Shown here one piece after another: positions 1 to 46,067 of a DNA stretch of 46,067 nucleotides. The position numbers were made by a program, and so were the translations under genes. The stretch is from a virus. Location: IMG/VR virus record IMGVR_UViG_3300044556_000176; one strand, 5' to 3'. Within the stretch, counting starts at the first letter, position 1; each line of letters starts with the position of its first letter. The notes beneath the pieces were generated by a model. That model did not search any database. It was not told the origin of the DNA and saw only the letters and a program-made list of their open reading frames with translations.

Positions 1-1504
1 CGACTTGGTCGTCGTGAGCGCCCATGGGGAAGCCGACGAGCTCATCCTCGTAGTCCCCCAGCCATGCGGCACCCATACGATGGAAGACCTTGTGGCTCTC
101 GTAACGAGCACCCATGGGGATAGCCTTGGTGACCTTGTCCTTGGTGGCGTTCAGCTCCATTACAGGCACACCAGCATTGCGCAGCATCTGGAAGACGGGA
201 CGACCAACACCATTGACCTCGATGCCCATGCACGTGGGCATGTAGCGTCTGTACTGGTCTAGCAGGAGCCTAGGCTGTTCAGCGCCTTCCATCTGTGCCC
301 TGAACACATCCCAAAGAAGCAGGTCGTTCTTCGGAGTGACGATCCATGTACTGCATACGAACCAGTCTGCTGTGGTCTTGGCAGAGGCTGTCGGATCGAC
401 GGTCTGGAAGTGCCAGCATTGCTCAGGCACGAATCGTTCATCGCCCGTGTCCCTGTGAAGCACGTACGTATGGTCGATGAGCTCCCAGTACCTGAAATCC
501 TTCCTACGGAACATGGTACCGTCTGGAGGACTGGGGTGCTGCTGATACATAGCATTGAACATGTAGCTGCCCATGGCGATTCGTGTACGATTCAGTGACA
601 CCTCATCATACATCTCTGGCCACAGCGCCTCTCCGTCAGAACGACCGAGCTGATCGGTGCCCTCTGCCAGAGCGGGAAGGCTCAGTACCTTCCACTTGTC
701 CGCACCCTTCTCCATATCCGCCAACAGACGTCCTGCAAGGTCGTCCTGATGCCAACGAGTCATAACGACAATCACGGCACCGCCTGGAGCCAAACGAGTG
801 CGCAGCGTAGTCTGGTACCAATTGTAGGCAGAGCGCCTCACCGTCTCAGAGCTAGCCTCTTCATAGTTCTTAATCGGGTCGTCAATAATGGCGATATGAG
901 CACCTTTACCAGTGATAGCGCCACCAACACCTGCTGCAACAATGCCATTGTCGTGGCTTCCTTCGAGTCCCCATCGGTCTGCACGAGCAGCATCCTCTGC
1001 GAGCTTGACTCCGAACAGTTCCTCGCTGTCTCTCATCTTGTTCCTCGTCATTCGACCGAATTCCTGAGCGAGGTCTGCCGAGTAGGATGTGAGCATCCAC
1101 GTCATCCATGGATGGTTGCCCATTCCCCACACAGGAAACTCCTGGGAGACGAGGCGAGACTTACCGTGTCGAGGCGGCATGAAGATCATAACACGCAGAT
1201 TATCGCTCTCCGACTCATTCATGCGTGCCTCGTGAATAGCGACTACGTCATTGATGGTCGCTTCGAGCTGAGCTGCAATGAGCCTGTGGTGGCGTCCGAT
1301 CTTGTAGCTCTCGTCCATGTACAATGTGTAGTCGAGAAGGTGGCGACGTGCGAGTTCCTGTCGGATACATTCGAGCTGACCGAGCATGTTAGGCACATCT
1401 TTGATGTCGAGCGGTTGAGTCCTGTCTCCATCGGACAACTGGGTGGGAAGACCTTCAGGAGCTTTTGTTCCGACATGGGACACGACCTTGTTACGTCTAG
1501 GCAT
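1..1504 (-). CDS. terL: Terminase large subunit, duplicate copy; the C-terminal part is cut by the window edge (full copy at 42531-44138)
   Basis: Same sequence as 42635-44138. ATG at 1502-1504. The ORF has no stop before position 1, so the ORF track does not list it. Confidence 0.9.
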   Translation of the reverse strand, partial: MPRRNKVVSHVGTKAPEGLPTQLSDGDRTQPLDIKDVPNMLGQLECIRQELARRHLLDYTLYMDESYKIGRHHRLIAAQLEATINDVVAIHEARMNESESDNLRVMIFMPPRHGKSRLVSQEFPVWGMGNHPWMTWMLTSYSADLAQEFGRMTRNKMRDSEELFGVKLAEDAARADRWGLEGSHDNGIVAAGVGGAITGKGAHIAIIDDPIKNYEEASSETVRRSAYNWYQTTLRTRLAPGGAVIVVMTRWHQDDLAGRLLADMEKGADKWKVLSLPALAEGTDQLGRSDGEALWPEMYDEVSLNRTRIAMGSYMFNAMYQQHPSPPDGTMFRRKDFRYWELIDHTYVLHRDTGDERFVPEQCWHFQTVDPTASAKTTADWFVCSTWIVTPKNDLLLWDVFRAQMEGAEQPRLLLDQYRRYMPTCMGIEVNGVGRPVFQMLRNAGVPVMELNATKDKVTKAIPMGARYESHKVFHRMGAAWLGDYEDELVGFPMGAHDDQV

Positions 1505-2273
1505 CTTCCACCGCCTCAGCAGTCACGGGTAAAGCGGGAAGTGCCGCATCATCCACATGATCTCCCACGGTCACTTCCACAGCTTGTGCAATTTCTTTCA
1601 CCTTGGCGCGTAATTGTTCATCTGTTAGGGCTTTCACGTCTACCTGCCAATTCACGTCTAGCTTGTGCTTAGTCTCGACGGAAATCTCCATTACCCGCTT
1701 GGCATTCCACACATCAGGCATACGACATTCGAGATATCGAATCATCGCCGAGACGTTGCCGTTAATAGCAGCAGAGAACAGAGCATTCTCGACCAATGAG
1801 CATGCGAAAATGCGAGCCTCTTCCAAGTCGCACCAGAACTTGGCATACTTGCCTTCTTGTCCTCGTGCCATTTCTTCCTTACCACGACGACGCCACTCAG
1901 TGATTGTACGAGGGTTCAGACCAACACGAGCTGAAGCAGTGGTGAATGTGTAGCCTTGCTTCACTAGCGCGACAATTTGAGGAGCCTTCTCGTCGAATTT
2001 GTGGTAGCCACCCTTAGCTGCTGCTTCCTCAATGTTAGTATGGACGGCACAATATTTGCCGTCCACCGTTGCCCCCTTTGTGCATTGCTTTCCTGTTCGA
2101 GGATTGTGTCCTTGACAACGAGGAGTCCCCCAGTAAGTCCAATGCTCAGGGTCTTCAATATGCTTAGGATGTGGGTTATTTTTGGAATACTTAGGCTTCG
2201 ACTTCTTAGATCCTGAGACCTTCTTCGAAGCCTTAGTCTTCCCATTCTCCCTGTTAGTCGTCATTATCACCAC
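1497..2273 (-). CDS. terS: Putative terminase small subunit (duplicate of 44131-44907)
   Basis: 258-aa ORF directly upstream of terL with an 8-nt overlap. Lys-rich N-terminus, Cys/His cluster CQGH..C..C..H, and HTH-like ARVGLNPRTITEWRRRG. The track start at 2273 is GTG; the ATG at 2262-2264 is an alternative start. Confidence 0.65.
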   Translation of the reverse strand: MVIMTTNRENGKTKASKKVSGSKKSKPKYSKNNPHPKHIEDPEHWTYWGTPRCQGHNPRTGKQCTKGATVDGKYCAVHTNIEEAAAKGGYHKFDEKAPQIVALVKQGYTFTTASARVGLNPRTITEWRRRGKEEMARGQEGKYAKFWCDLEEARIFACSLVENALFSAAINGNVSAMIRYLECRMPDVWNAKRVMEISVETKHKLDVNWQVDVKALTDEQLRAKVKEIAQAVEVTVGDHVDDAALPALPVTAEAVEDA

Positions 2274-2330
2274 ATTCCTATTATTTAAATATATACTCCT
2301 TATCTATTATCGCTCTTTTTCTTATAGATT
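2274..2330 (-). promoter_or_regulatory. Candidate late-operon promoter: GAGCGATAATA box upstream of terS
   Basis: The minus strand reads GAGCGATAATA at 2305-2315. This is the same undecamer as in early modules A and E. It sits 40 nt before the terS ATG and is followed by the AT palindrome TATTTAAATA. Confidence 0.4.
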
Positions 2331-2404
2331 ACCTTATCAATTTCATTATATTTTCTTATGCATTAATACGTTTTCTTGTTTTACCACATTAACGACATCT
2401 CTCG

Positions 2405-2505
2405 AAAATATTTTTATTATTTTCAAGATTCCCGATGAAAGTTGAACAATTTCGAGCGATAATAGTGTTGCAGGGAATTGACAACGACTTCGAAAGGACA
2501 CTGCA
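2405..2505 (+). promoter_or_regulatory. Conserved early promoter/leader module, copy A
   Basis: AT-rich ATATTTTT..ATTTTCAA tract, then GATTCCCGAT (2427-2436), GTTGAAC (2441-2447) and GAGCGATAATA (2454-2464). Leader stem GTTG 2467-2470 pairs with CAAC 2482-2485. AAAGGA RBS, then ATG at 2506. Confidence 0.65.
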
Positions 2506-3234
2506 ATGACCACCATGACCAACTTCTCCACTACCGCTGAGCGCATTGGTAAGACCACTTCTGAGAAGAGGGCTGTCGAGGCTATGGCGAATTCTCTTGG
2601 CTCCGTTGAGAACGCCATCGCCGACGGCGACACCCACTACGAGGGTCACTGCTTCATCGACGATGCCGAGCAGTACGCATCCGAGGGTCTCGATTCGCTC
2701 GACAAGCGCACCCTCAACCACATCTCCGATGAGCGCATCAACGAGCTCGTTCACGAGGTAGCCCTCACTTTCGATTACCTCGAAGAGTACAACGAGCCAG
2801 CCACTTCACCTGAGGCTAACAATGACAAGGAGAACGCCATGACCGCGCCCCAGACTTCTGTTTTCATCCCTTCCTCTGCCGCTTCCATGTCCTTCGAGGA
2901 CTTCATCGACGGCATGTATCTGTTCGCTAGCAAGTGGGTCGGCGAGATCGCCGTTGATCGTGTGGCTATTCGTGTTGAGTCTCTCTACAACGACATCACG
3001 TTCCGCACGATGGTGTTCGAGTATCGTCAGGCTGTGCTTTCTCGTGACACCAACAAGAAGCTCATGTTCCGCTCGATGGTGACTGGTGACGCTGTCTGCA
3101 CCGCTGACGACTGGGACAACGACATCTATTCATCCAAGGTGAATGCGTACGGCGACGTGCTCTACGATATGCTCGTTCGCCTCCCTAGGAATGCCGAGGA
3201 TGAGCGCGAATCCCTCAAGAAGTTCTGCGAGTAG
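2506..3234 (+). CDS. Hypothetical acidic early protein (242 aa), monocistronic
   Basis: ORF with an RBS, flanked by module A and the terminator at 3243-3273. Very rich in D/E. No family recognised. Confidence 0.75.
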   Translation: MTTMTNFSTTAERIGKTTSEKRAVEAMANSLGSVENAIADGDTHYEGHCFIDDAEQYASEGLDSLDKRTLNHISDERINELVHEVALTFDYLEEYNEPATSPEANNDKENAMTAPQTSVFIPSSAASMSFEDFIDGMYLFASKWVGEIAVDRVAIRVESLYNDITFRTMVFEYRQAVLSRDTNKKLMFRSMVTGDAVCTADDWDNDIYSSKVNAYGDVLYDMLVRLPRNAEDERESLKKFCE

Positions 3235-3242
3235 AATCTGTT

Positions 3243-3273
3243 GGCTGGGTGGGGAGACCTGCCCAGCCTTTTT
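3243..3273 (+). terminator. Rho-independent terminator
   Basis: Stem GGCTGGG (3243-3249) pairs with CCCAGCC (3262-3268), followed by TTTTT (3269-3273). It lies 9 nt after the stop of 2506-3234. Confidence 0.8.
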
Positions 3274-3277
3274 CTCT

Positions 3278-3371
3278 GAATATTTTCAAGATTTTCTTGA
3301 TTCCCAATAATAGTTCAACTATTTAGAGGGATAATAAGGTCGTCAGGAAGTAACGACTGAAGGGAACTGAA
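3278..3371 (+). promoter_or_regulatory. Conserved early promoter/leader module, copy B
   Basis: GAATATTTTCAAGATTTTCTT, then GATTCCCAAT (3299-3308), the palindrome AATAGTTCAACTATT (3309-3323) and GAGGGATAATA (3326-3336). Leader stem GTCGT 3339-3343 pairs with ACGAC 3353-3357. GAAGGGA RBS, then ATG at 3372. Confidence 0.65.
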
Positions 3372-3638
3372 ATGGAGAACGTCAAGGAAATCGTCAAGAT
3401 CGGTCAGAAGCTTACCGCCCACAAGGGTGAGTGCATTGGTATCAAGATTTACGAAATGAAGAAGGAAGTCGAAGTCTCCAAGGTCAACAAGAAGTCCTTC
3501 ATTGCAAGCGGCATCAAGTTCTCCCTCTGGAAGGTCACCGACAAGGATTCCTGTGGTCTTCGTCGCAAGGACGGTAAGAAGCGTGCCATCTTCACGTCTC
3601 CTAGCCGCATTGATGGCATCGTTGAAATCGAATTCTAA
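3372..3638 (+). CDS. Hypothetical basic early protein (88 aa)
   Basis: First ORF after module B, with an RBS. No family recognised. Confidence 0.65.
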   Translation: MENVKEIVKIGQKLTAHKGECIGIKIYEMKKEVEVSKVNKKSFIASGIKFSLWKVTDKDSCGLRRKDGKKRAIFTSPSRIDGIVEIEF

Positions 3639-3647
3639 GGGGGAAAC

Positions 3648-3899
3648 ATGAAGAACTCAGGTCTCGACTGGATCGACGACGAGGGATACTGCGGGTATCC
3701 GACCGCTCGTGTGAATGGCTTTGCGATCGTTATGTGCTGCGATGACGACGACAGCCTCGCAATTCAGGTTTTCGACGAGGAAGACGACCATGCCATCGAG
3801 TGTGGAGAGATCTACCAGCAGCTGAGCGGATTCGACTCTTTCGACGATATGCAGCTCGCTGCTGAGTATCTCGCATTCACCCTTTGCCACGTACGCTAA
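3648..3899 (+). CDS. Hypothetical strongly acidic early protein (83 aa)
   Basis: GGGGGAAAC ATG RBS 9 nt after the previous stop. Contains D/E runs (CCDDDDS, DEEDD). Confidence 0.65.
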   Translation: MKNSGLDWIDDEGYCGYPTARVNGFAIVMCCDDDDSLAIQVFDEEDDHAIECGEIYQQLSGFDSFDDMQLAAEYLAFTLCHVR

Positions 3900-3948
3900 C
3901 GATCATTTCGACATCAATCGCTGCATCGTCAAGTTCTAAGGAGAAATC

Positions 3949-4131
3949 ATGGCACACATTCCTGAGGCAGACCGCGCTCGCATCTACGAACTCGCAGACG
4001 AGTTCGGAGTTCACCCTTCCATCGTCCGCTCGTTGTACGACGTGATGCCGAACGAGCTTTACGATGGCATCGTCACCGCGCTGGAGGACATGGCGGACGA
4101 TCCAGACTACGAGGAACTTTTCGATGAGTAG
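3949..4131 (+). CDS. Small acidic protein with an HTH-like segment (60 aa)
   Basis: AAGGAGAAATC ATG RBS. The segment IYELADEFGVHPSIVRSLY looks like a helix-turn-helix. Acidic C-terminal tail DDPDYEELFDE. Confidence 0.6.
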   Translation: MAHIPEADRARIYELADEFGVHPSIVRSLYDVMPNELYDGIVTALEDMADDPDYEELFDE

Positions 4132-4357
4132 GCATTTTTACCGTTTGACGCTCCACAGGAACGATAGGCTTTACTTCCATGCGATCTACGAAAACAAGCT
4201 GAACGCTCGAAAAGCCTATCTGAAGCTTCGAACGAACAGAAAGTCCGATTCTAAGCGTCTAGACGAGGTGTTTTGGGACTCGTGCATTGGTCGTTGGCAG
4301 TACGTTCAAACGCTAAACCGCACAGACGGCAATTCACATGATTCAAACCAATTCTAA
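4124..4357 (+). CDS. Hypothetical basic protein (77 aa)
   Basis: The track ORF 4064-4357 overlaps the previous gene. The internal ATG at 4124 overlaps the previous stop (GATGAGTAG), which fits translational coupling. The start is uncertain. Confidence 0.5.
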   Translation: MSRHFYRLTLHRNDRLYFHAIYENKLNARKAYLKLRTNRKSDSKRLDEVFWDSCIGRWQYVQTLNRTDGNSHDSNQF

Positions 4358-4407: not shown

Positions 4408-4448
4408 CTCGTTAGAACCCATTCTAAGGCTCCGAAATATTTTCAGAA

Positions 4449-4943
4449 TCAGAGCTCAATCAATCCATTGGCTCCAGCATCATCAAGTAGGAATCTAGCG
4501 AGGTGTTTGGCGGCATCTTTGGCATGAACACCCTTGCCTAGGTCGCACCACGGCACGGTCTTCATCTGAGATGCCGTATGCCACACGACTTCGCATCCAT
4601 TCCGCTCAGCCACTGCAGCGCAACCACCGACCAGCTCCATAGTCATCGTGGCTTCACGACCCATAGTGACTCCGATGCGAGGAGTGTGCTTCTCGATTAC
4701 GACCACCTGAATGGATGGACCAGCATTGCGCAGAAACTCTTCCATCCACTTAATGGTCTGGTCGTGAGGCACCATTGAGTATCCGACGTTCACAGCATTC
4801 TTATAGCTCCAAGCGCACCCTGTTGTGCCTCCTGGGTCAAGGGCTAGCACACCCCTATGCGGACGTCTAAGAACACGTTGGAACACGCTCACTCCAGTCG
4901 ACTCTTTATTCTCGGAGGGCTTTTGTATCAACGACATCTGCAT
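4449..4943 (-). CDS. RuvC-like Holliday-junction resolvase
   Basis: N-terminal VLALDPGGTTG (catalytic Asp), VVIEKH (Glu) and C-terminal HAKDAAKH, as in the RuvC/RNase H-fold resolvases of phages. Confidence 0.7.
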   Translation of the reverse strand: MQMSLIQKPSENKESTGVSVFQRVLRRPHRGVLALDPGGTTGCAWSYKNAVNVGYSMVPHDQTIKWMEEFLRNAGPSIQVVVIEKHTPRIGVTMGREATMTMELVGGCAAVAERNGCEVVWHTASQMKTVPWCDLGKGVHAKDAAKHLARFLLDDAGANGLIEL

Positions 4944-5510: not shown

Positions 5511-5927
5511 CTAATGCGCCTCATTTCGAATACAGATGAGCGCCTCGACCATTTCGGGCTTGTTAAGACGAGCAATGTCGTCCTCGTCAAGGTCAATGGC
5601 GAGAGCAATGAGCTCACTCTTCTTCATACGCCTGAGCTTGTTATCCGACAGATGGAGAAGGTCATCCATAGCCACTTCACGAGGAGAAGGCGCCTTATCC
5701 AAGGTCTCAGGAATGCGCATTTGCTCCTGGAGAGAACCATCGCCTGTAGCGTACAGAGACCATGCAGCTCCACATTCATCGCACACCACGTCCACGCAAC
5801 GACCCGTAGACGTGATATTCCCAAAACTCGTTCGAGCATGCTCACCACTGCCACAAACAGGACACACGCTCTTTGTGACGAGCTTGTATTCCTCGTCAGT
5901 CATTTCTCTGAGTCGAATAGTCTTCAT
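5511..5927 (-). CDS. Zinc-ribbon protein with a C-terminal HeH/Rho-N-like helix pair (138 aa)
   Basis: CPVCG..(22)..CDEC motif. The C-terminal segment MKKSELIALAIDLDEDDIARLNKPEMVEALI resembles Rho_N/SAP-type DNA/RNA-binding modules. Confidence 0.6.
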   Translation of the reverse strand: MKTIRLREMTDEEYKLVTKSVCPVCGSGEHARTSFGNITSTGRCVDVVCDECGAAWSLYATGDGSLQEQMRIPETLDKAPSPREVAMDDLLHLSDNKLRRMKKSELIALAIDLDEDDIARLNKPEMVEALICIRNEAH

Positions 5928-18495: not shown

Positions 18496-18659
18496 TGATT
18501 TTACCTCCTTCTTCTCAAATTAAGGTGAGCAATACAATTGGGTTATATAACCCTTCAATTAGATATTAAGTTTTATTCATGATCACCTCTCCCTGTCTGT
18601 CGTCATTGTTCCAATATTATCCTCCATTTTCAGAGGAAAATATGTAGAAATTTAAAAAT
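18496..18659 (-). promoter_or_regulatory. AT-rich 164-bp intergenic region with a degenerate early module and a 14-bp palindrome
   Basis: Minus-strand ACATATTTTC..GGAGGATAATA (18615-18625), then a GACGACAGACAGGGAGAGG leader, then a 4-codon mini-ORF ATGAATAAAACTTAA (18566-18580). Perfect palindrome GGGTTATATAACCC at 18540-18553. Confidence 0.45.
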
Positions 18660-20744: not shown

Positions 20745-21341
20745 CTAGTTCAGTTCGAGCTTGAAGTCTGCAGTCTTCGAGACACGATTCTTGAACTCGA
20801 CAACGTAGGTGACCTTGCCAGTGTACTTGTTGTTCTTGCGGACGACGCGCTTGATGTCATCAGCCTTGGTACGCTTGTAGCCACGGTGAGCACGAACCTT
20901 CTCGACGATCTTTTCGGGAGCAATGGCGCTCTTGGTGTTGCCGTCTTTGTGGTTGGCGTAACGAGCACGACGGAGCTCACGAGCCTCTTCAAAGGCCTCA
21001 GCATCATCGGTGTAGACGTAGCCGTTGCGGTTCTCCATGCGATACCAAACGTGGGACTCGACAACCTCGCCGTCCTGATTCCAGAGGGAGCTGAAGCTGT
21101 TGTCGGCAAAGTCCTGCTCATACTTACGGACCTCAAGAACCTCGATGCTGTTGAAGTTCTTGCTCTCGTGGAAGACGCGAATACGGTAGGTGATGCCGTC
21201 CTTGGTGAGGTCTGCCTTGAAATCGTCACCCTGAGAACCAGCCATGGTGCCGAAGTTGAAGATGAAACCGTTTGCGATGAGCTCGTTGACCTTGGCAGTG
21301 GCGATAGCGGCGATGTCGTTCATGTTCTTGACGTTCTTCAT
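20745..21341 (-). CDS. Hypothetical protein (198 aa from MKNVKN) with a basic C-terminal half
   Basis: The ATG at 21339-21341 has a GGGAG RBS inside leader C. The track start (TTG at 21395) would lie inside the promoter module. No family recognised. Confidence 0.65.
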   Translation of the reverse strand: MKNVKNMNDIAAIATAKVNELIANGFIFNFGTMAGSQGDDFKADLTKDGITYRIRVFHESKNFNSIEVLEVRKYEQDFADNSFSSLWNQDGEVVESHVWYRMENRNGYVYTDDAEAFEEARELRRARYANHKDGNTKSAIAPEKIVEKVRAHRGYKRTKADDIKRVVRKNNKYTGKVTYVVEFKNRVSKTADFKLELN

Positions 21342-21445
21342 TGTTGACTCCCTGTCGTAGTTGTTGAACTTCTTGACAACGTTATTATCCCTCAAGATTG
21401 TTCAACTTCTATCGGGAATCTGAAAAATATTGAAAATATTTTTAC
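21342..21445 (-). promoter_or_regulatory. Conserved early promoter/leader module, copy C
   Basis: The minus strand reads AAAATATTTTCAATATTTTTCA, then GATTCCCGAT (21411-21420), GTTGAAC (21400-21406) and GAGGGATAATA (21383-21393). Stem GTTGT (21376-21380) pairs with ACAAC (21360-21364). GGGAG RBS, then ATG. Confidence 0.65.
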
Positions 21446-22194
21446 ACGAGGTCGTCCCAGCCATCGAAATCGATATCTCGTCTGTTCATCTCCTGGAGGA
21501 TATTTGGATTAATGTCTATACCTCCAGACTTCTTTTTATGGGATACGCCTTCGATATCAAACGCTTCAGAGATTTTCGATATCTCGCTTTTCACGTACGA
21601 TTCGAATCCAAAGTCATCGCTGAGTTGATGCTCTGCAAGGAATGGCTCGTATGATCCAGACGCAGACAAATCGTCTCTTATACGCTTTGTCCAAGTCGAC
21701 AGGGCTTCTGTTGGTCGGTAGCTACCGACATCTTGAATGAATTGAACAGCATACCTTCGGATTTCATCATCGACTTCCAGCCACGACATTGCGAATGCCT
21801 TGAGTGTCGTGTTGTCCGCATCGACAAACTTCCATATGCCACAGCCACGACTCTTAATCAGGCGACCTTCACTGACGAGTTTATTAATTATTTGAAGTGC
21901 CGTCTGCGGAGTAACATTCGTGAATTTCACGATTCCTGTGACAGACACTGTATCGGGATAAGCAGAGAGATACCCTTCAAGCATAGGATGCTCTGCCTTC
22001 AAATCTTCGAAGGTATCTCCAGACAATTCATCAATGTCTGCGTTCTTCCATCCAATTCGAGCGCAATCAATCATAAACTTGTTGACAGATACACAGTTCT
22101 TTTTAGCTGCTGCAGCTATCTTCTTCCAGACGCTACCGTTTGCTTTGATGGTGATGCCGTACCTTCCATCGTCCTTCATCTCGTGAATTTCCAT
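21442..22194 (-). CDS. First gene of the leftward early operon: putative DNA-binding protein (RHH-like N-terminus plus a winged-helix segment), 250 aa
   Basis: ITIKANGSVWKKIAAAAKKNCVSVNKFMIDCA looks like a ribbon-helix-helix. VTPQTALQIINKLVSEGRLIKSR looks like a wHTH recognition helix. Acidic-aromatic C-terminus DIDFDGWDDLV. Confidence 0.6.
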   Translation of the reverse strand: MEIHEMKDDGRYGITIKANGSVWKKIAAAAKKNCVSVNKFMIDCARIGWKNADIDELSGDTFEDLKAEHPMLEGYLSAYPDTVSVTGIVKFTNVTPQTALQIINKLVSEGRLIKSRGCGIWKFVDADNTTLKAFAMSWLEVDDEIRRYAVQFIQDVGSYRPTEALSTWTKRIRDDLSASGSYEPFLAEHQLSDDFGFESYVKSEISKISEAFDIEGVSHKKKSGGIDINPNILQEMNRRDIDFDGWDDLV

Positions 22195-22276
22195 GTCATC
22201 CCTTTCTGTTGGAATTGTACAACATTTATATTATCGCTCTGTTTTTGTGTAATCTCATCGAGAATCACGTATTTTC
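22195..22276 (-). promoter_or_regulatory. Conserved early promoter/leader module, copy E
   Basis: The minus strand reads GAAAATACGTGATTCTCGAT (box at 22257-22266) and GAGCGATAATA (22229-22239). Stem TGTTG pairs with CAACA (22220-22224 / 22207-22211). AAAGGGA RBS, then ATG at 22194. Confidence 0.6.
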
Positions 22277-22459
22277 TTCTAATGGGAGAGTTCCCCCTCC
22301 CCCTAGGTAGACATCAATCAATTTTTCAAAAGGTGAAAACCTATTTAGATCTTCCAATCGCCCACGTGTTTTTCTATAATGAATCATACCTAAGAGAACA
22401 CTAGACTCGAAGGTGGGGAGGGGGAGGGACGTCTATCCTTAGGGGAAAATACGTGATTC
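22262..22459. repeat. Long imperfect inverted repeat spanning the late/early junction
   Basis: Outer arms GAATCACGTATTTTC (22262-22276) and GAAAATACGTGATTC (22445-22459) match 15/15. Inner arms CCCCCTCCCC (22293-22302) and GGGGAGGGGG (22415-22424) match 10/10. The spacer contains a plus-strand TTCCAA-17 nt-TATAAT (22352-22357 / 22375-22380). Confidence 0.8.
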
Positions 22460-22466
22460 CGAATAG

Positions 22467-22533: not shown

Positions 22534-23544
22534 TTATGCTTCAGGCTTTTTGCGGACTTTGAGCTGCCCAGACTCTGCAGCGTAAAGCTCCAGGTCTCCC
22601 GTGACCATCTTTCCGTCCTTGTCAATGACGTAATTTTCGCCATTGACATTAATCGTAGAGTCTCTTACCATTGCGCCTGAATCGTTGAGGTAGTACCAAG
22701 ACCCTTCGTACATAAGCCATCCAGTGGCCATTGCGCCTGAATCGTTGAGGTAATAACGATTGCCATCGACATCGATCCACCCTGTTGCCATAGCACCAGA
22801 GTCGTCTAGGTAATACCACTTACCGTCAACACTAACCCAACCAGTCAACATGGCACCTGAATCTGCAAGGTAATACCACTTGTCATCATCTAGAATCCAG
22901 CCAGTTTGCATCCAGCCTTCAGAATCGAAGTGATACCATACGCCATCAATCAACTCCCAGTCATTGGTGGTATAAGACCCGTCGGAATGACGATACCACC
23001 ATCGACCATCTCGATTGATCCACCCTGCTCCTTCAGTCTGCGCTCCAGTCATCACATCATACCAGTACTGAGCTCGCTCCATGTATCTGTTGTGATACGA
23101 CGTCCCCTCCTTGAGAGGTCCAGGACAACTGGTAGAGGAGAAGTGGCAATGCGGGAATACGTTCCGCATCCACTCTGGACGACCAAGACCGTAGTACTTG
23201 CAGATTGCAGCGCACAGATGCGCACCATTCTCGATACAAGCATCTGTCATGGAATTTCCCTGATTGGCATGCTCAATGCCAATGGACTTCTGATTCGCAG
23301 CCCAGTTTCCTGCGTGCCATGCTGTGTCGCCATCCCAGACGAGCTGACCTATGCGTCCAGACGATTCGACTTGGTAATGAGCAGAAGCCTCGCGAGTCTG
23401 CCACACGCTATAGCAGCCCTCTACGGTGAGGTCTCCATCATTGTAATGAACAACGACAAACTGGATGTCATTACCACCACGACCCTTGGTGAAGTGTTTC
23501 GTGAGGATCTTGTTCACGTCCGCATTGAGATTCCCAAAATCCAT
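22534..23544 (-). CDS. Endolysin: N-acetylmuramoyl-L-alanine amidase (Amidase_2/PGRP fold) plus about 7 cell-wall-binding (CW_binding_1-like) repeats
   Basis: VVHY, SAHYQV, AWHAGNWAANQKSIGIEH and HCHFSSTSCPG. The C-terminal repeats GWxxxDGxWYYLxDSGAMxT (about 22569-23028) are visible as near-identical ~60-nt units. Confidence 0.9.
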   Translation of the reverse strand: MDFGNLNADVNKILTKHFTKGRGGNDIQFVVVHYNDGDLTVEGCYSVWQTREASAHYQVESSGRIGQLVWDGDTAWHAGNWAANQKSIGIEHANQGNSMTDACIENGAHLCAAICKYYGLGRPEWMRNVFPHCHFSSTSCPGPLKEGTSYHNRYMERAQYWYDVMTGAQTEGAGWINRDGRWWYRHSDGSYTTNDWELIDGVWYHFDSEGWMQTGWILDDDKWYYLADSGAMLTGWVSVDGKWYYLDDSGAMATGWIDVDGNRYYLNDSGAMATGWLMYEGSWYYLNDSGAMVRDSTINVNGENYVIDKDGKMVTGDLELYAAESGQLKVRKKPEA

Positions 23545-38471: not shown

Positions 38472-38511
38472 AACGTGCTGCGAGTGCTTTTCCATGCATG
38501 CGCAGCACGTT
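38472..38511 (-). terminator. 11-bp stem-loop between the MuF-ART pair and the scaffold gene
   Basis: AACGTGCTGCG (38472-38482) pairs with CGCAGCACGTT (38501-38511). On the minus strand it is followed by TCTTTGT and preceded by a GAGAGATAAT box (38520-38529). Confidence 0.55.
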
Positions 38512-38583
38512 CTTGAAGAATTATCTCTCTAGTAACAAGGCGAGAAAGCTAAGTTCCATCTGGAATAGTGAGCTTTAACTGCT

Positions 38584-42530: not shown

Positions 42531-44138
42531 CTACACTGGTGAGATGATGTTGGGTACGTCGAGCTCGACCAGTGAAGCACCAGTCCTACGGCTGGCGAGC
42601 TCCTGAGTGAGGATAGCGGCATAGGATGCAGTGTCGACTTGGTCGTCGTGAGCGCCCATGGGGAAGCCGACGAGCTCATCCTCGTAGTCCCCCAGCCATG
42701 CGGCACCCATACGATGGAAGACCTTGTGGCTCTCGTAACGAGCACCCATGGGGATAGCCTTGGTGACCTTGTCCTTGGTGGCGTTCAGCTCCATTACAGG
42801 CACACCAGCATTGCGCAGCATCTGGAAGACGGGACGACCAACACCATTGACCTCGATGCCCATGCACGTGGGCATGTAGCGTCTGTACTGGTCTAGCAGG
42901 AGCCTAGGCTGTTCAGCGCCTTCCATCTGTGCCCTGAACACATCCCAAAGAAGCAGGTCGTTCTTCGGAGTGACGATCCATGTACTGCATACGAACCAGT
43001 CTGCTGTGGTCTTGGCAGAGGCTGTCGGATCGACGGTCTGGAAGTGCCAGCATTGCTCAGGCACGAATCGTTCATCGCCCGTGTCCCTGTGAAGCACGTA
43101 CGTATGGTCGATGAGCTCCCAGTACCTGAAATCCTTCCTACGGAACATGGTACCGTCTGGAGGACTGGGGTGCTGCTGATACATAGCATTGAACATGTAG
43201 CTGCCCATGGCGATTCGTGTACGATTCAGTGACACCTCATCATACATCTCTGGCCACAGCGCCTCTCCGTCAGAACGACCGAGCTGATCGGTGCCCTCTG
43301 CCAGAGCGGGAAGGCTCAGTACCTTCCACTTGTCCGCACCCTTCTCCATATCCGCCAACAGACGTCCTGCAAGGTCGTCCTGATGCCAACGAGTCATAAC
43401 GACAATCACGGCACCGCCTGGAGCCAAACGAGTGCGCAGCGTAGTCTGGTACCAATTGTAGGCAGAGCGCCTCACCGTCTCAGAGCTAGCCTCTTCATAG
43501 TTCTTAATCGGGTCGTCAATAATGGCGATATGAGCACCTTTACCAGTGATAGCGCCACCAACACCTGCTGCAACAATGCCATTGTCGTGGCTTCCTTCGA
43601 GTCCCCATCGGTCTGCACGAGCAGCATCCTCTGCGAGCTTGACTCCGAACAGTTCCTCGCTGTCTCTCATCTTGTTCCTCGTCATTCGACCGAATTCCTG
43701 AGCGAGGTCTGCCGAGTAGGATGTGAGCATCCACGTCATCCATGGATGGTTGCCCATTCCCCACACAGGAAACTCCTGGGAGACGAGGCGAGACTTACCG
43801 TGTCGAGGCGGCATGAAGATCATAACACGCAGATTATCGCTCTCCGACTCATTCATGCGTGCCTCGTGAATAGCGACTACGTCATTGATGGTCGCTTCGA
43901 GCTGAGCTGCAATGAGCCTGTGGTGGCGTCCGATCTTGTAGCTCTCGTCCATGTACAATGTGTAGTCGAGAAGGTGGCGACGTGCGAGTTCCTGTCGGAT
44001 ACATTCGAGCTGACCGAGCATGTTAGGCACATCTTTGATGTCGAGCGGTTGAGTCCTGTCTCCATCGGACAACTGGGTGGGAAGACCTTCAGGAGCTTTT
44101 GTTCCGACATGGGACACGACCTTGTTACGTCTAGGCAT
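42531..44138 (-). CDS. terL: Terminase large subunit
   Basis: Walker A-like FMPPRHGKS, Walker B IAIIDDP, coupling motif TRWHQDDL, and nuclease-domain acidic motifs (VDPTAS, GAHDDQVD). Confidence 0.9.
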   Translation of the reverse strand: MPRRNKVVSHVGTKAPEGLPTQLSDGDRTQPLDIKDVPNMLGQLECIRQELARRHLLDYTLYMDESYKIGRHHRLIAAQLEATINDVVAIHEARMNESESDNLRVMIFMPPRHGKSRLVSQEFPVWGMGNHPWMTWMLTSYSADLAQEFGRMTRNKMRDSEELFGVKLAEDAARADRWGLEGSHDNGIVAAGVGGAITGKGAHIAIIDDPIKNYEEASSETVRRSAYNWYQTTLRTRLAPGGAVIVVMTRWHQDDLAGRLLADMEKGADKWKVLSLPALAEGTDQLGRSDGEALWPEMYDEVSLNRTRIAMGSYMFNAMYQQHPSPPDGTMFRRKDFRYWELIDHTYVLHRDTGDERFVPEQCWHFQTVDPTASAKTTADWFVCSTWIVTPKNDLLLWDVFRAQMEGAEQPRLLLDQYRRYMPTCMGIEVNGVGRPVFQMLRNAGVPVMELNATKDKVTKAIPMGARYESHKVFHRMGAAWLGDYEDELVGFPMGAHDDQVDTASYAAILTQELASRRTGASLVELDVPNIISPV

Positions 44139-44907
44139 CTTCCACCGCCTCAGCAGTCACGGGTAAAGCGGGAAGTGCCGCATCATCCACATGATCTCCC
44201 ACGGTCACTTCCACAGCTTGTGCAATTTCTTTCACCTTGGCGCGTAATTGTTCATCTGTTAGGGCTTTCACGTCTACCTGCCAATTCACGTCTAGCTTGT
44301 GCTTAGTCTCGACGGAAATCTCCATTACCCGCTTGGCATTCCACACATCAGGCATACGACATTCGAGATATCGAATCATCGCCGAGACGTTGCCGTTAAT
44401 AGCAGCAGAGAACAGAGCATTCTCGACCAATGAGCATGCGAAAATGCGAGCCTCTTCCAAGTCGCACCAGAACTTGGCATACTTGCCTTCTTGTCCTCGT
44501 GCCATTTCTTCCTTACCACGACGACGCCACTCAGTGATTGTACGAGGGTTCAGACCAACACGAGCTGAAGCAGTGGTGAATGTGTAGCCTTGCTTCACTA
44601 GCGCGACAATTTGAGGAGCCTTCTCGTCGAATTTGTGGTAGCCACCCTTAGCTGCTGCTTCCTCAATGTTAGTATGGACGGCACAATATTTGCCGTCCAC
44701 CGTTGCCCCCTTTGTGCATTGCTTTCCTGTTCGAGGATTGTGTCCTTGACAACGAGGAGTCCCCCAGTAAGTCCAATGCTCAGGGTCTTCAATATGCTTA
44801 GGATGTGGGTTATTTTTGGAATACTTAGGCTTCGACTTCTTAGATCCTGAGACCTTCTTCGAAGCCTTAGTCTTCCCATTCTCCCTGTTAGTCGTCATTA
44901 TCACCAC
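44131..44907 (-). CDS. terS: Putative terminase small subunit
   Basis: Same as 1497-2273. Confidence 0.65.
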   Translation of the reverse strand: MVIMTTNRENGKTKASKKVSGSKKSKPKYSKNNPHPKHIEDPEHWTYWGTPRCQGHNPRTGKQCTKGATVDGKYCAVHTNIEEAAAKGGYHKFDEKAPQIVALVKQGYTFTTASARVGLNPRTITEWRRRGKEEMARGQEGKYAKFWCDLEEARIFACSLVENALFSAAINGNVSAMIRYLECRMPDVWNAKRVMEISVETKHKLDVNWQVDVKALTDEQLRAKVKEIAQAVEVTVGDHVDDAALPALPVTAEAVEDA

Positions 44908-45038
44908 ATTCCTATTATTTAAATATATACTCCTTATCTATTATCGCTCTTTTTCTTATAGATTACCTTATCAATTTCATTATATTTTCTTATGCATTAA
45001 TACGTTTTCTTGTTTTACCACATTAACGACATCTCTCG

Positions 45039-45139
45039 AAAATATTTTTATTATTTTCAAGATTCCCGATGAAAGTTGAACAATTTCGAGCGATAATAGT
45101 GTTGCAGGGAATTGACAACGACTTCGAAAGGACACTGCA
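45039..45139 (+). promoter_or_regulatory. Early module copy A (second occurrence, owing to the window wrap)
   Basis: Identical to 2405-2505. Confidence 0.65.
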
Positions 45140-45868
45140 ATGACCACCATGACCAACTTCTCCACTACCGCTGAGCGCATTGGTAAGACCACTTCTGAGA
45201 AGAGGGCTGTCGAGGCTATGGCGAATTCTCTTGGCTCCGTTGAGAACGCCATCGCCGACGGCGACACCCACTACGAGGGTCACTGCTTCATCGACGATGC
45301 CGAGCAGTACGCATCCGAGGGTCTCGATTCGCTCGACAAGCGCACCCTCAACCACATCTCCGATGAGCGCATCAACGAGCTCGTTCACGAGGTAGCCCTC
45401 ACTTTCGATTACCTCGAAGAGTACAACGAGCCAGCCACTTCACCTGAGGCTAACAATGACAAGGAGAACGCCATGACCGCGCCCCAGACTTCTGTTTTCA
45501 TCCCTTCCTCTGCCGCTTCCATGTCCTTCGAGGACTTCATCGACGGCATGTATCTGTTCGCTAGCAAGTGGGTCGGCGAGATCGCCGTTGATCGTGTGGC
45601 TATTCGTGTTGAGTCTCTCTACAACGACATCACGTTCCGCACGATGGTGTTCGAGTATCGTCAGGCTGTGCTTTCTCGTGACACCAACAAGAAGCTCATG
45701 TTCCGCTCGATGGTGACTGGTGACGCTGTCTGCACCGCTGACGACTGGGACAACGACATCTATTCATCCAAGGTGAATGCGTACGGCGACGTGCTCTACG
45801 ATATGCTCGTTCGCCTCCCTAGGAATGCCGAGGATGAGCGCGAATCCCTCAAGAAGTTCTGCGAGTAG
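45140..45868 (+). CDS. Hypothetical acidic early protein (same gene as 2506-3234)
   Basis: Identical translation. Confidence 0.75.
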   Translation: MTTMTNFSTTAERIGKTTSEKRAVEAMANSLGSVENAIADGDTHYEGHCFIDDAEQYASEGLDSLDKRTLNHISDERINELVHEVALTFDYLEEYNEPATSPEANNDKENAMTAPQTSVFIPSSAASMSFEDFIDGMYLFASKWVGEIAVDRVAIRVESLYNDITFRTMVFEYRQAVLSRDTNKKLMFRSMVTGDAVCTADDWDNDIYSSKVNAYGDVLYDMLVRLPRNAEDERESLKKFCE

Positions 45869-45876
45869 AATCTGTT

Positions 45877-45907
45877 GGCTGGGTGGGGAGACCTGCCCAG
45901 CCTTTTT
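45877..45907 (+). terminator. Rho-independent terminator (same as 3243-3273)
   Basis: Identical sequence. Confidence 0.8.
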
Positions 45908-45911
45908 CTCT

Positions 45912-46005
45912 GAATATTTTCAAGATTTTCTTGATTCCCAATAATAGTTCAACTATTTAGAGGGATAATAAGGTCGTCAGGAAGTAACGACTGAAGGGAA
46001 CTGAA
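45912..46005 (+). promoter_or_regulatory. Early module copy B (second occurrence)
   Basis: Identical to 3278-3371. Confidence 0.65.
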
Positions 46006-46067
46006 ATGGAGAACGTCAAGGAAATCGTCAAGATCGGTCAGAAGCTTACCGCCCACAAGGGTGAGTG
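46006..46067 (+). CDS. 5' fragment of the 88-aa early gene (same as 3372-3433), cut by the window end
   Basis: Identical to 3372-3433. Confidence 0.65.
   Translation, partial: MENVKEIVKIGQKLTAHKGE

Follow-up and report, generated by a model that had tools for sequence, protein, structure and literature searches.

The window, by which is meant the whole stretch of DNA analysed here, comprises 46,067 nucleotides of an IMG/VR virus record (IMGVR_UViG_3300044556_000176). When the window is compared with itself, positions 1-3433 are found again, base for base, at 42635-46067. The genome is therefore 42,634 bp long, circular or circularly permuted, and written with an overlap, and all motif counts for the window include this 3,433-bp wrap-around duplicate, such that features within 1-3433 are counted twice. 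The phage is a virulent, uncultured siphovirus of the gut, with a siphovirus gene layout revealed by PHROG and Pfam scans of the genome; across the whole genome, these scans detected no integrase, repressor, RNA polymerase or sigma factor. The genome holds no tRNAs and no Rfam match, and it has no DNA match to cultured phages, to any of which its TerL and DnaE proteins are less than 40% identical. In an endolysin scan of genomes, the nearest relatives of the endolysin came from a mixture of Clostridia and Actinobacteria. The genes fall into three blocks:

44907 down to 22534, minus strand: late block with terS, terL, portal, MuF-type head protein, protease/scaffold, major head protein, tail genes, holin and endolysin
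22194 down to 4449, minus strand: early/replication block with a 250-aa protein, a 198-aa ORFan, SNF2-type helicase, PD-(D/E)XK nuclease, AAA_24 protein, SSB-like protein, primase-helicase, Tmk, DnaE-type polymerase, ThyX and Dut
2506-4357, plus strand: small island of ORFans

An initial annotation had described one promoter/leader module at the head of four transcription units, here called A, B, C and E. All four copies are present, with every element in place, as follows:

2404-2508, plus strand: module A; AT tract at 2404-2426, GATTC box GATTCCCGAT at 2427-2436
2440-2450, plus strand: palindromic box of module A, AGTTGAACAAT
2454-2464, plus strand: -10 region of module A, GAGCGATAATA, with GAGCGATAAT at 2454-2463
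2464-2505, plus strand: leader of module A; GTTG 2467-2470 and CAAC 2482-2485, ACGAC 2484-2488, Shine-Dalgarno (SD) sequence GAAAGGA 2492-2498
2506, plus strand: ATG behind module A, which drives an acidic 242-aa ORFan
3278-3374, plus strand: module B, directly after a separate terminator at 3243-3268; GATTC box GATTCCCAAT at 3299-3308
3312-3322, plus strand: box of module B, AGTTCAACTAT, within the perfect 13-bp palindrome ATAGTTCAACTAT at 3310-3322
3326-3336, plus strand: -10 region of module B, GAGGGATAATA, with GAGGGATAAT at 3326-3335
3339-3372, plus strand: leader elements of module B; GTCGT 3339-3343 and ACGAC 3353-3357, SD 3359-3365, ATG 3372
21339-21445, minus strand: module C, whose start coincides with the stop codon of the 250-aa gene; GATTC box at 21420-21411
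21407-21397, minus strand: palindromic box of module C, followed by the -10 region at 21393-21383 with GAGGGATAAT at 21393-21384
21380-21348, minus strand: leader elements of module C; GTTG 21380-21377 and CAAC 21366-21363, ACGAC 21358-21354, SD 21353-21348
21370-21360, minus strand: box-like second copy in the leader of module C, AGTTCAACAAC, weaker than the main box
21341, minus strand: ATG behind module C, which drives the 198-aa ORFan
22192-22276, minus strand: module E; GATTC box GATTCTCGAT at 22266-22257, no palindromic (GTTSAAC) box
22239-22229, minus strand: -10 region of module E, GAGCGATAATA, with GAGCGATAAT at 22239-22230
22223-22194, minus strand: leader elements of module E; GTTG 22223-22220 and CAAC 22211-22208, SD 22206-22199, ATG 22194

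The shared architecture put forward for these copies is borne out by an alignment that runs without a gap from the AT tract through GATAAT. If GATAAT is set at -12 to -7, an AT-rich, UP-like tract occupies -66 to -44 and a box of the form ATTC-N-Y-R-AT occupies -43 to -34. A 7-bp palindrome, GTT-S-AAC, is centred near -26 in all copies of A, B and C and is absent from E. The invariant GAG-N-GATAAT is followed by a leader of 34-41 nt that ends in (A/C)CGAC, a Shine-Dalgarno sequence and the ATG. Each copy points in the same direction as a ribosome-binding site and ATG lying downstream at a fixed distance, 34-41 nt from GATAATA to ATG across the four copies, as expected of promoter/leader elements. 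In the nearest relative of the phage, copy A matches copy C at 78% over 84 nt (E 7e-13) and copy B at 71% over 80 nt (E 1e-6). PHROG and Pfam scans gave no family assignment for the genes downstream of the cassettes; the one behind module E encodes the 250-aa protein, a putative DNA-binding protein. In the window, including the wrap-around duplicate, GAGSGATAATA with at most one mismatch occurs 13 times (1.23 expected; no shuffle reached 13), AGTTSAACWAT 16 times (2.98 expected) and AAATATTTTCA nine times (0.46 expected). The module is probably a lineage-specific early-promoter/leader cassette that heads four transcription units plus a degenerate fifth.

Beyond the four full copies, the annotation had listed a terS copy, two degenerate copies and two partial upstream halves. 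Every one of these was recovered, the terS copy at 2315-2305, the degenerate ones at 18625-18615 and at 38529-38520, and the partial halves at 22455-22464 and at 4435-4445:

2305-2315, minus strand: divergent terS (late) promoter, GAGCGATAATA; the sequence upstream of it is unrelated to the module
18566-18640, minus strand: degenerate module D, with a ATATTTTC tract, GGAGGATAATA at 18625-18615 and a ACGACAGACAGGGAG leader
38520-38529, minus strand: GAGAGATAAT, between a small ORF after MuF-ART and the protease/scaffold gene, conserved in all relatives
22445-22464, plus strand: inverted partial copy of the upstream half of E, GAAAATACGTGATTCCGAAT, with no -10 element behind it
4434-4450, plus strand: AT-tract remnant AAATATTTTCA, after the terminator of cassette B (the island)

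The terS-promoter motif is kept in all relatives including the distant relative L224, where it reads GAGGGATAAT. At the end of the early block, a 138-aa ORF (5511-5927, minus strand) shows a sub-threshold match to the Ogr/Delta zinc finger (E 0.003) and has a Rho_N/SAP-like tail; its product is a candidate for activating late genes from the terS promoter. Module D is devoid of the GATTC box, of the GTTSAAC box and of the 5′ arm of the leader stem. It is followed by a mini-ORF of four codons, ATG AAT AAA ACT TAA (18580-18566, minus strand), after which come the palindrome GGGTTATATAACCC (18553-18540, minus strand), a ribosome-binding site and the GTG start of the PD-(D/E)XK nuclease gene; mini-ORF and palindrome may constitute a leader-peptide or attenuator arrangement. 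GAGAGATAAT is directly followed by a strong 12-bp hairpin with a T-rich tail, and the combined element (38472-38529, minus strand) might serve as an internal late promoter, as a terminator or as both. The inverted copy of the upstream half of E (GAAAATACGTGATTC) lies about 180 bp upstream of E (22262-22464). Just upstream of E, G/C-tract or GA/TC-tract hairpins differ in sequence among relatives while their pairing potential is kept. The AT-tract remnant is likely a scar of cassette turnover.

Relatives were gathered by pattern scans of IMG/VR and of metagenomes, and the whole records were then compared. In about 20 relatives from gut metagenomes (80-95% ANI), the four modules recur at equivalent positions. 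Fourteen near-complete genomes, most of them at 92-95% ANI and one, G013, at 80%, provide 66 distinct module sequences (17 of A, 15 of B, 18 of C and 16 of E) when taken together with further human-gut contigs and the distant relative L224. Between -66 and -7, no indel occurs in the 66 matched variants, the search pattern itself having fixed the spacing from the GATTC box to GATAAT. Nucleotide diversity (pi) was computed over 13-14 genomes, with four-fold degenerate sites as the neutral reference (pi 0.24 in the gene behind E and 0.20 in that behind C). Against this background, pi is 0 in A, C and E for GATAAT and the preceding GAG, and likewise in A and C for the GTTSAAC box, whereas the base between GAG and GATAAT, at -13, is free (0.5-0.6 in A and C). 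The GATTC box shows values of 0.06-0.11 with an invariant core, ATTC...AT, and the AT tract in A and C shows values of 0.03-0.08. Nucleotides 4-6 after GATAAT are hypervariable, and hardly any position of the leader varies past about +2. Strong purifying selection acts on the boxes and on the -10 element, and both the absence of indels and the contrast between pi of 0 and the 0.20-0.24 of four-fold sites uphold the assignment as a promoter/leader module. The result is a testable map of frozen and free bases in the transcription signals of an uncultured human-gut phage clade.

Since frozen and free positions alternate within a few bases, the conservation speaks for a sequence-specific constraint rather than mere recent copying. 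Because most relatives are so similar (92-95% ANI) and recombine with each other, recent recombination or gene conversion between copies could account for some of the conservation. A longer comparison is afforded by L224, which comes from a different metagenome and whose TerS and TerL share 70% and 78% amino-acid identity with the proteins of the window. Its module is preserved almost letter for letter (GGATTCCCGAT-gat-AGTTCAACTAT-tta-GAGGGATAAT, followed by ACGACTTCGAAAGGA), in contrast to 22-30% divergence of the adjacent proteins. At 1300-1400 of L224, shown on the minus strand, a single module has two palindromic boxes, ATAGTACAACTAT and ATAGTTCAACTAT, which lie 29 bp apart, the additional ATAGTACAACTAT box being the upstream one. 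Two further TerL relatives, P0006 and P0007, are 72-75% identical. In IMG/VR phages at 33-53% TerL identity, the motifs are absent (three chance matches in 540 kb), which marks the cassette as lineage-specific; IMG/VR contained no TerL between 78% and 53% identity.

GATAAT matches TATAAT at five of six positions, including A at -11 and T at -7, and is invariant in the 66 variants. Of the TG expected at -15/-14 of an extended -10, the G at -14 is invariant within GAG-N-GATAAT, but -15 is an A. Copy A of G013 has GGCGCATAAT in place of GAGCGATAAT, and the GAG is therefore not absolutely required. The claim that no copy carries a TTGACA-like -35 element holds for B (ATAATA, three of six matches) and C (ATAGAA, two of six) and has to be relaxed for A and E, where four of six positions match (ATGAAA and ATGAGA, 17 nt upstream of GATAAT). 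The -35-equivalent positions vary among relatives, and no canonical TTGACA-like hexamer was found 16-18 bp upstream in copies A, B, C or E; the promoter can reasonably be taken to be factor-dependent for lack of a canonical -35. Other promoter classes were compared with the alignment by eye. Spacings or key bases do not fit sigma-28 (TAAA-N15-GCCGATAA), and they are wrong for sigma-B, ECF, sigma-H and sigma-54 promoters as well as for TTGAAC read as a -35 element; a tandem upstream promoter, TTTTCA-17-AATAAT, is good in B only.

In the proposed mechanism, host RNA polymerase equipped with the primary sigma factor would read GATAAT as an extended-type -10 element with G at -14 and without a usable -35. 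The extended-type -10 is also the only element that the terS late promoter and module D share with the cassette. The GATTC box, common to the four copies, would substitute for or assist the -35 contact, either through polymerase or through a time-zero factor, and box and AT tract together would aid the recruitment of polymerase instead of a -35. Both the early timing and the use of host sigma factor are what we infer from the sequence. A dimer bound to the palindrome, which lies within the spacer, would keep polymerase out; the most likely role of the palindrome is therefore that of an operator timing or shutting off units A-C. Its features are those of an operator in that the box is symmetric, invariant (pi = 0) and fixed in position, and in L224 it is duplicated. 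GTTGAAC in A and C and GTTCAAC in B are two orientations of one 7-bp palindrome, and the flip of the central base from G to C is what would be expected of a site with two-fold symmetry. Resemblances to CodY, Spo0A and LexA boxes amount to 7-15-mers with several mismatches.

The candidate protein for binding this putative operator is encoded by the first gene of unit E, a unit that itself has no palindrome:

21442-22194, minus strand: gene of the 250-aa candidate regulator, which is RHH-like at its N-terminus and has a putative wHTH spanning roughly residues 60-125

Pfam places it near HicB (E 0.09) and MarR_2 (E 0.18), and its Atlas neighbours are IclR/MarR at 0.86. The AlphaFold model is of low confidence (pLDDT 55), and a Foldseek search with it returned no significant match (E > 0.03), although nearly all of the non-significant ones are winged-helix regulators. 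These predictions hint that the protein may bind DNA through an RHH or wHTH fold, and among the products of the phage it would be the best candidate binder of the palindrome. Naming a candidate operator together with a candidate regulator is useful for annotating the clade.

The main rival to an operator role is an activator role of the T4 MotA or MerR kind. According to this alternative, the boxes are activator sites of factor-dependent, middle-type promoters, at which a phage or virion protein replaces the -35 contact or at which the polymerase has been modified; the models are sigma appropriation by MotA/AsiA of T4 and a capsid-borne MuF-ART modifying polymerase in the manner of T4 Alt. The combination of a good -10 with no usable -35 agrees with this idea, as do invariant boxes placed exactly where sigma region 4 would sit. 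However, the cassettes fill essentially all intergenic regions able to hold early promoters, so that at least one of them must fire on naked host polymerase. In addition, a centre near -26 is unusual for an activator site other than the MerR type, a -35 spaced by 19-20 bp is absent, and Pfam and PHROG scans detected no MotA/AsiA homologue. An activator role is a minority prospect. Less probable again is a bolder proposal, namely that the cassette represents a -35-independent promoter class which needs a factor at or right after DNA entry, be it virion-delivered (the head-borne ADP-ribosyltransferase, acting on host polymerase) or the RHH/wHTH protein in contact with the GATTC box and the palindrome. 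If true, it would constitute a new scheme of transcription take-over in phages of Gram-positive gut bacteria.

The leader stem had attracted attention because GTTG(T)/(A)CAAC in A, C and E is replaced by GTCGT/ACGAC in B, and this T-to-C change with its matching A-to-G change had been read as compensatory evolution of a selected 5′ RNA hairpin, with a role as mRNA stabiliser or in translation control. Points in its favour come from copies B and C. In B, 13 of 14 variants keep the pairing, mostly via a U.G pair; their stems of 5-6 bp include the perfect GTCGT/ACGAC as well as a U.G intermediate, GTTGT/ACGAC. Full pairing is found in 13 of 18 variants of C, as GTTG/CAAC in seven and as GTCG/CGAC in six, and the covariation in C exceeds column shuffles (41/2000). 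C is the only copy in which covariation beats the shuffles, and its excess reflects one linked haplotype pair. The pooled association of Y with R at the covarying pair gives a Fisher p of 0.048, uncorrected for relatedness. In the relatives, however, the arms of A, C and E vary without compensation, which had been named beforehand as the observation that would refute selection on the stem. Copy A is fully paired in 9 of 17 variants, with a 3′ arm that reads CAAC in 16 of the 17 and a 5′ arm that reads GTTG, GCTG, GCCG, GTCG, ACTG or ATCG; in C, five variants combine GTCG, TTCG or TCCG with CAAC; and E is fully paired in 8 of 16. Broken pairs thus occur in 8/17, 5/18 and 8/16 variants, respectively, or 21/51 over A, C and E together. 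Double changes are confined to a single base pair, which is T-A in 22 variants, C-G in 18, T.G in 17 and a non-pairing C-A in eight.

Several further observations speak against a selected hairpin. No part of the module varies more than the 5′ arm, which evolves at the neutral rate (pi 0.17-0.27). It is missing from copy A of G013, from module D and from L224, yet all three keep ACGAC beside the Shine-Dalgarno sequence, reading ACGACTTCGAAAGGA in G013 copy A and in L224; since the 3′ arm is kept where the 5′ arm is absent or varies, it must be conserved for a reason other than pairing with that arm. Minimum free energies of the leader folds lie between -5 and -8 kcal/mol and their z-scores between -0.8 and +0.5, no better than shuffled sequences, and the best structures differ from copy to copy. 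Registers of the 3′ arm slid by +/-3 pair almost as well as the proposed one, owing to an RAC-type triplet repeat in the 3′ region. With standard promoter geometry (GATAAT at -12 to -7), the 5′ arm would lie at -3 to +1 in A, B and C and at about +1 to +4 in E, and in A-C it is therefore probably hardly transcribed. A selected hairpin is thus very unlikely; the idea was tempting but finds no support in the relatives and is withdrawn. The short stem is mostly a by-product of GTYGT and RACRAC-type sequence near the start site.

The cassettes also serve as junctions at which ORFan genes are inserted, deleted and replaced among relatives, and breakpoints of gene-content differences between close relatives fall in or next to them. 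Identity to the window stands at about 0.9 upstream of B and drops to 0.56-0.59 from the first bases after GATAAT through leader and gene, on account of an extra 88-aa gene situated right behind promoter B in the window genome and in four related contigs. This gene (3372-3638, plus strand) has a weak ProQ_C-like match. In G002, an extra ORF of about 65 aa lies between a full A module and a partial duplicate in which a degenerate -10 is joined to an A-type leader. A deletion in G011 runs from 2497 to about 4090 and has one end inside the Shine-Dalgarno sequence of A, and the B cassette is missing from five relatives (G011-G015). In L197, the upstream half is of the C type, whereas the leader behind it is of the A type and precedes a different gene. 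Overall, the plus-strand ORFan island at 2506-4357 is hyperplastic across G001-G015. Given that gene exchange is located at the cassettes, the cassette is also a portable homology patch, and it marks the spots at which ORFan genes, likely involved in host takeover, are exchanged.

Coincidence of cassette boundaries with recombination breakpoints and the existence of hybrids such as L197 would also be expected if the similarity of the copies were mainly historical, that is, if a portable cassette had been spread by duplication and gene conversion and the boxes beyond the -10 had no sequence-specific function. Such an explanation is improbable, as variation is specific to position: -13 varies (pi 0.5-0.6 in A and C), as do the flanking N3 positions, while adjacent boxes show pi = 0, and free positions between frozen ones make conversion alone insufficient. 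Moreover, the core in L224 is identical despite about 22-30% divergence of the TerS and TerL proteins. The least probable reading, a DNA operator for a dimeric repressor formed by a dyad GTYG-N10-CRAC over the start site, can draw on an inverted repeat overlapping +1 in all four copies, but it is hard to sustain: 17 of 65 variants have unequal half-sites (T with G), eight have mismatched ones (C with A), the 5′ half evolves neutrally, and the dyad is missing from module D, G013 copy A and L224.

Repeated promoter/leader cassettes are a common kind of phage feature, and several known systems invite comparison. The closest likeness is with the promoter-early stem-loop (PeSL) cassettes of the T4-type phages RB49 and phi1 (Arbiol et al. 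2010, PMC2839356). PeSLs are repeated intergenic cassettes of about 100 bp, present in about 50 copies, in which an AT-rich tract, an early promoter and a short inverted repeat are followed at the 3′ side by a Shine-Dalgarno sequence and start codon (PMC2839356). They mostly precede ORFans in the hyperplastic region, where they act as junctions for the insertion, deletion and replacement of gene cassettes; their promoters match the sigma-70 consensus at -35 and -10, and their stable, G/C-rich stem-loops act as terminators (PMC2839356). A further mark of the PeSL type is the excision of mini-circles by recombination between cassettes. The present module likewise repeats an AT tract, an early promoter, a Shine-Dalgarno sequence and a start codon before ORFans and is an exchange junction. 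In contrast to PeSLs, it lacks the -35 and has two other conserved boxes instead; its stems of 4-6 bp are not significant and form no stable terminator, terminators being separate; and it is found in 4-5 copies in a siphovirus of a Gram-positive-like gut host. The idea of mobile regulatory cassettes is thereby extended from T4-type coliphages to a very different phage.

T4 middle promoters consist of a MotA box, (a/t)(a/t)TGCTT(t/c)a, near -30 and an extended -10, and sigma is appropriated by MotA and AsiA. Both these promoters and the cassette have a good extended-type -10 and a conserved box in place of the -35 hexamer. The box considered here, however, is of another sequence, palindromic and centred near -26 rather than -30; Pfam and PHROG scans revealed no MotA/AsiA homologue in this phage, and the cassettes seem to be its only candidate early promoters. 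The SAS/ESAS elements of cluster K mycobacteriophages (Pope et al. 2011, via PMC12699233) are conserved motifs containing a ribosome-binding site just upstream of several starts, with the consensus GGGATAGGAGCCC and 10-20 copies per genome. They resemble the cassette in having a conserved motif linked to the ribosome-binding site, here the (A/C)CGAC-N0-5-SD element, and in the imperfect inverted repeats that sometimes precede it, to which no function is ascribed; they differ in a consensus unrelated to the cassette and in having no linked promoter core. Sigma-A promoters of Corynebacterium glutamicum have a weak or absent -35 and the extended -10 GNTANANTNG (PMC3917453). With its invariant G (-14), A (-11) and T (-7), the cassette is reminiscent of actinobacterial sigma-A promoters, in which a -35 is often unidentifiable. 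The hexamer of the cassette nevertheless starts with G rather than T. The module lacks defining features of each of these systems and is therefore best filed under the general kind of repeated phage early-promoter regulatory cassettes.

At the far end of the late block, the endolysin gene contains four 60-nt tandem repeats (22668-22907, minus strand) that encode 20-aa cell-wall-binding repeats of the choline-binding type.
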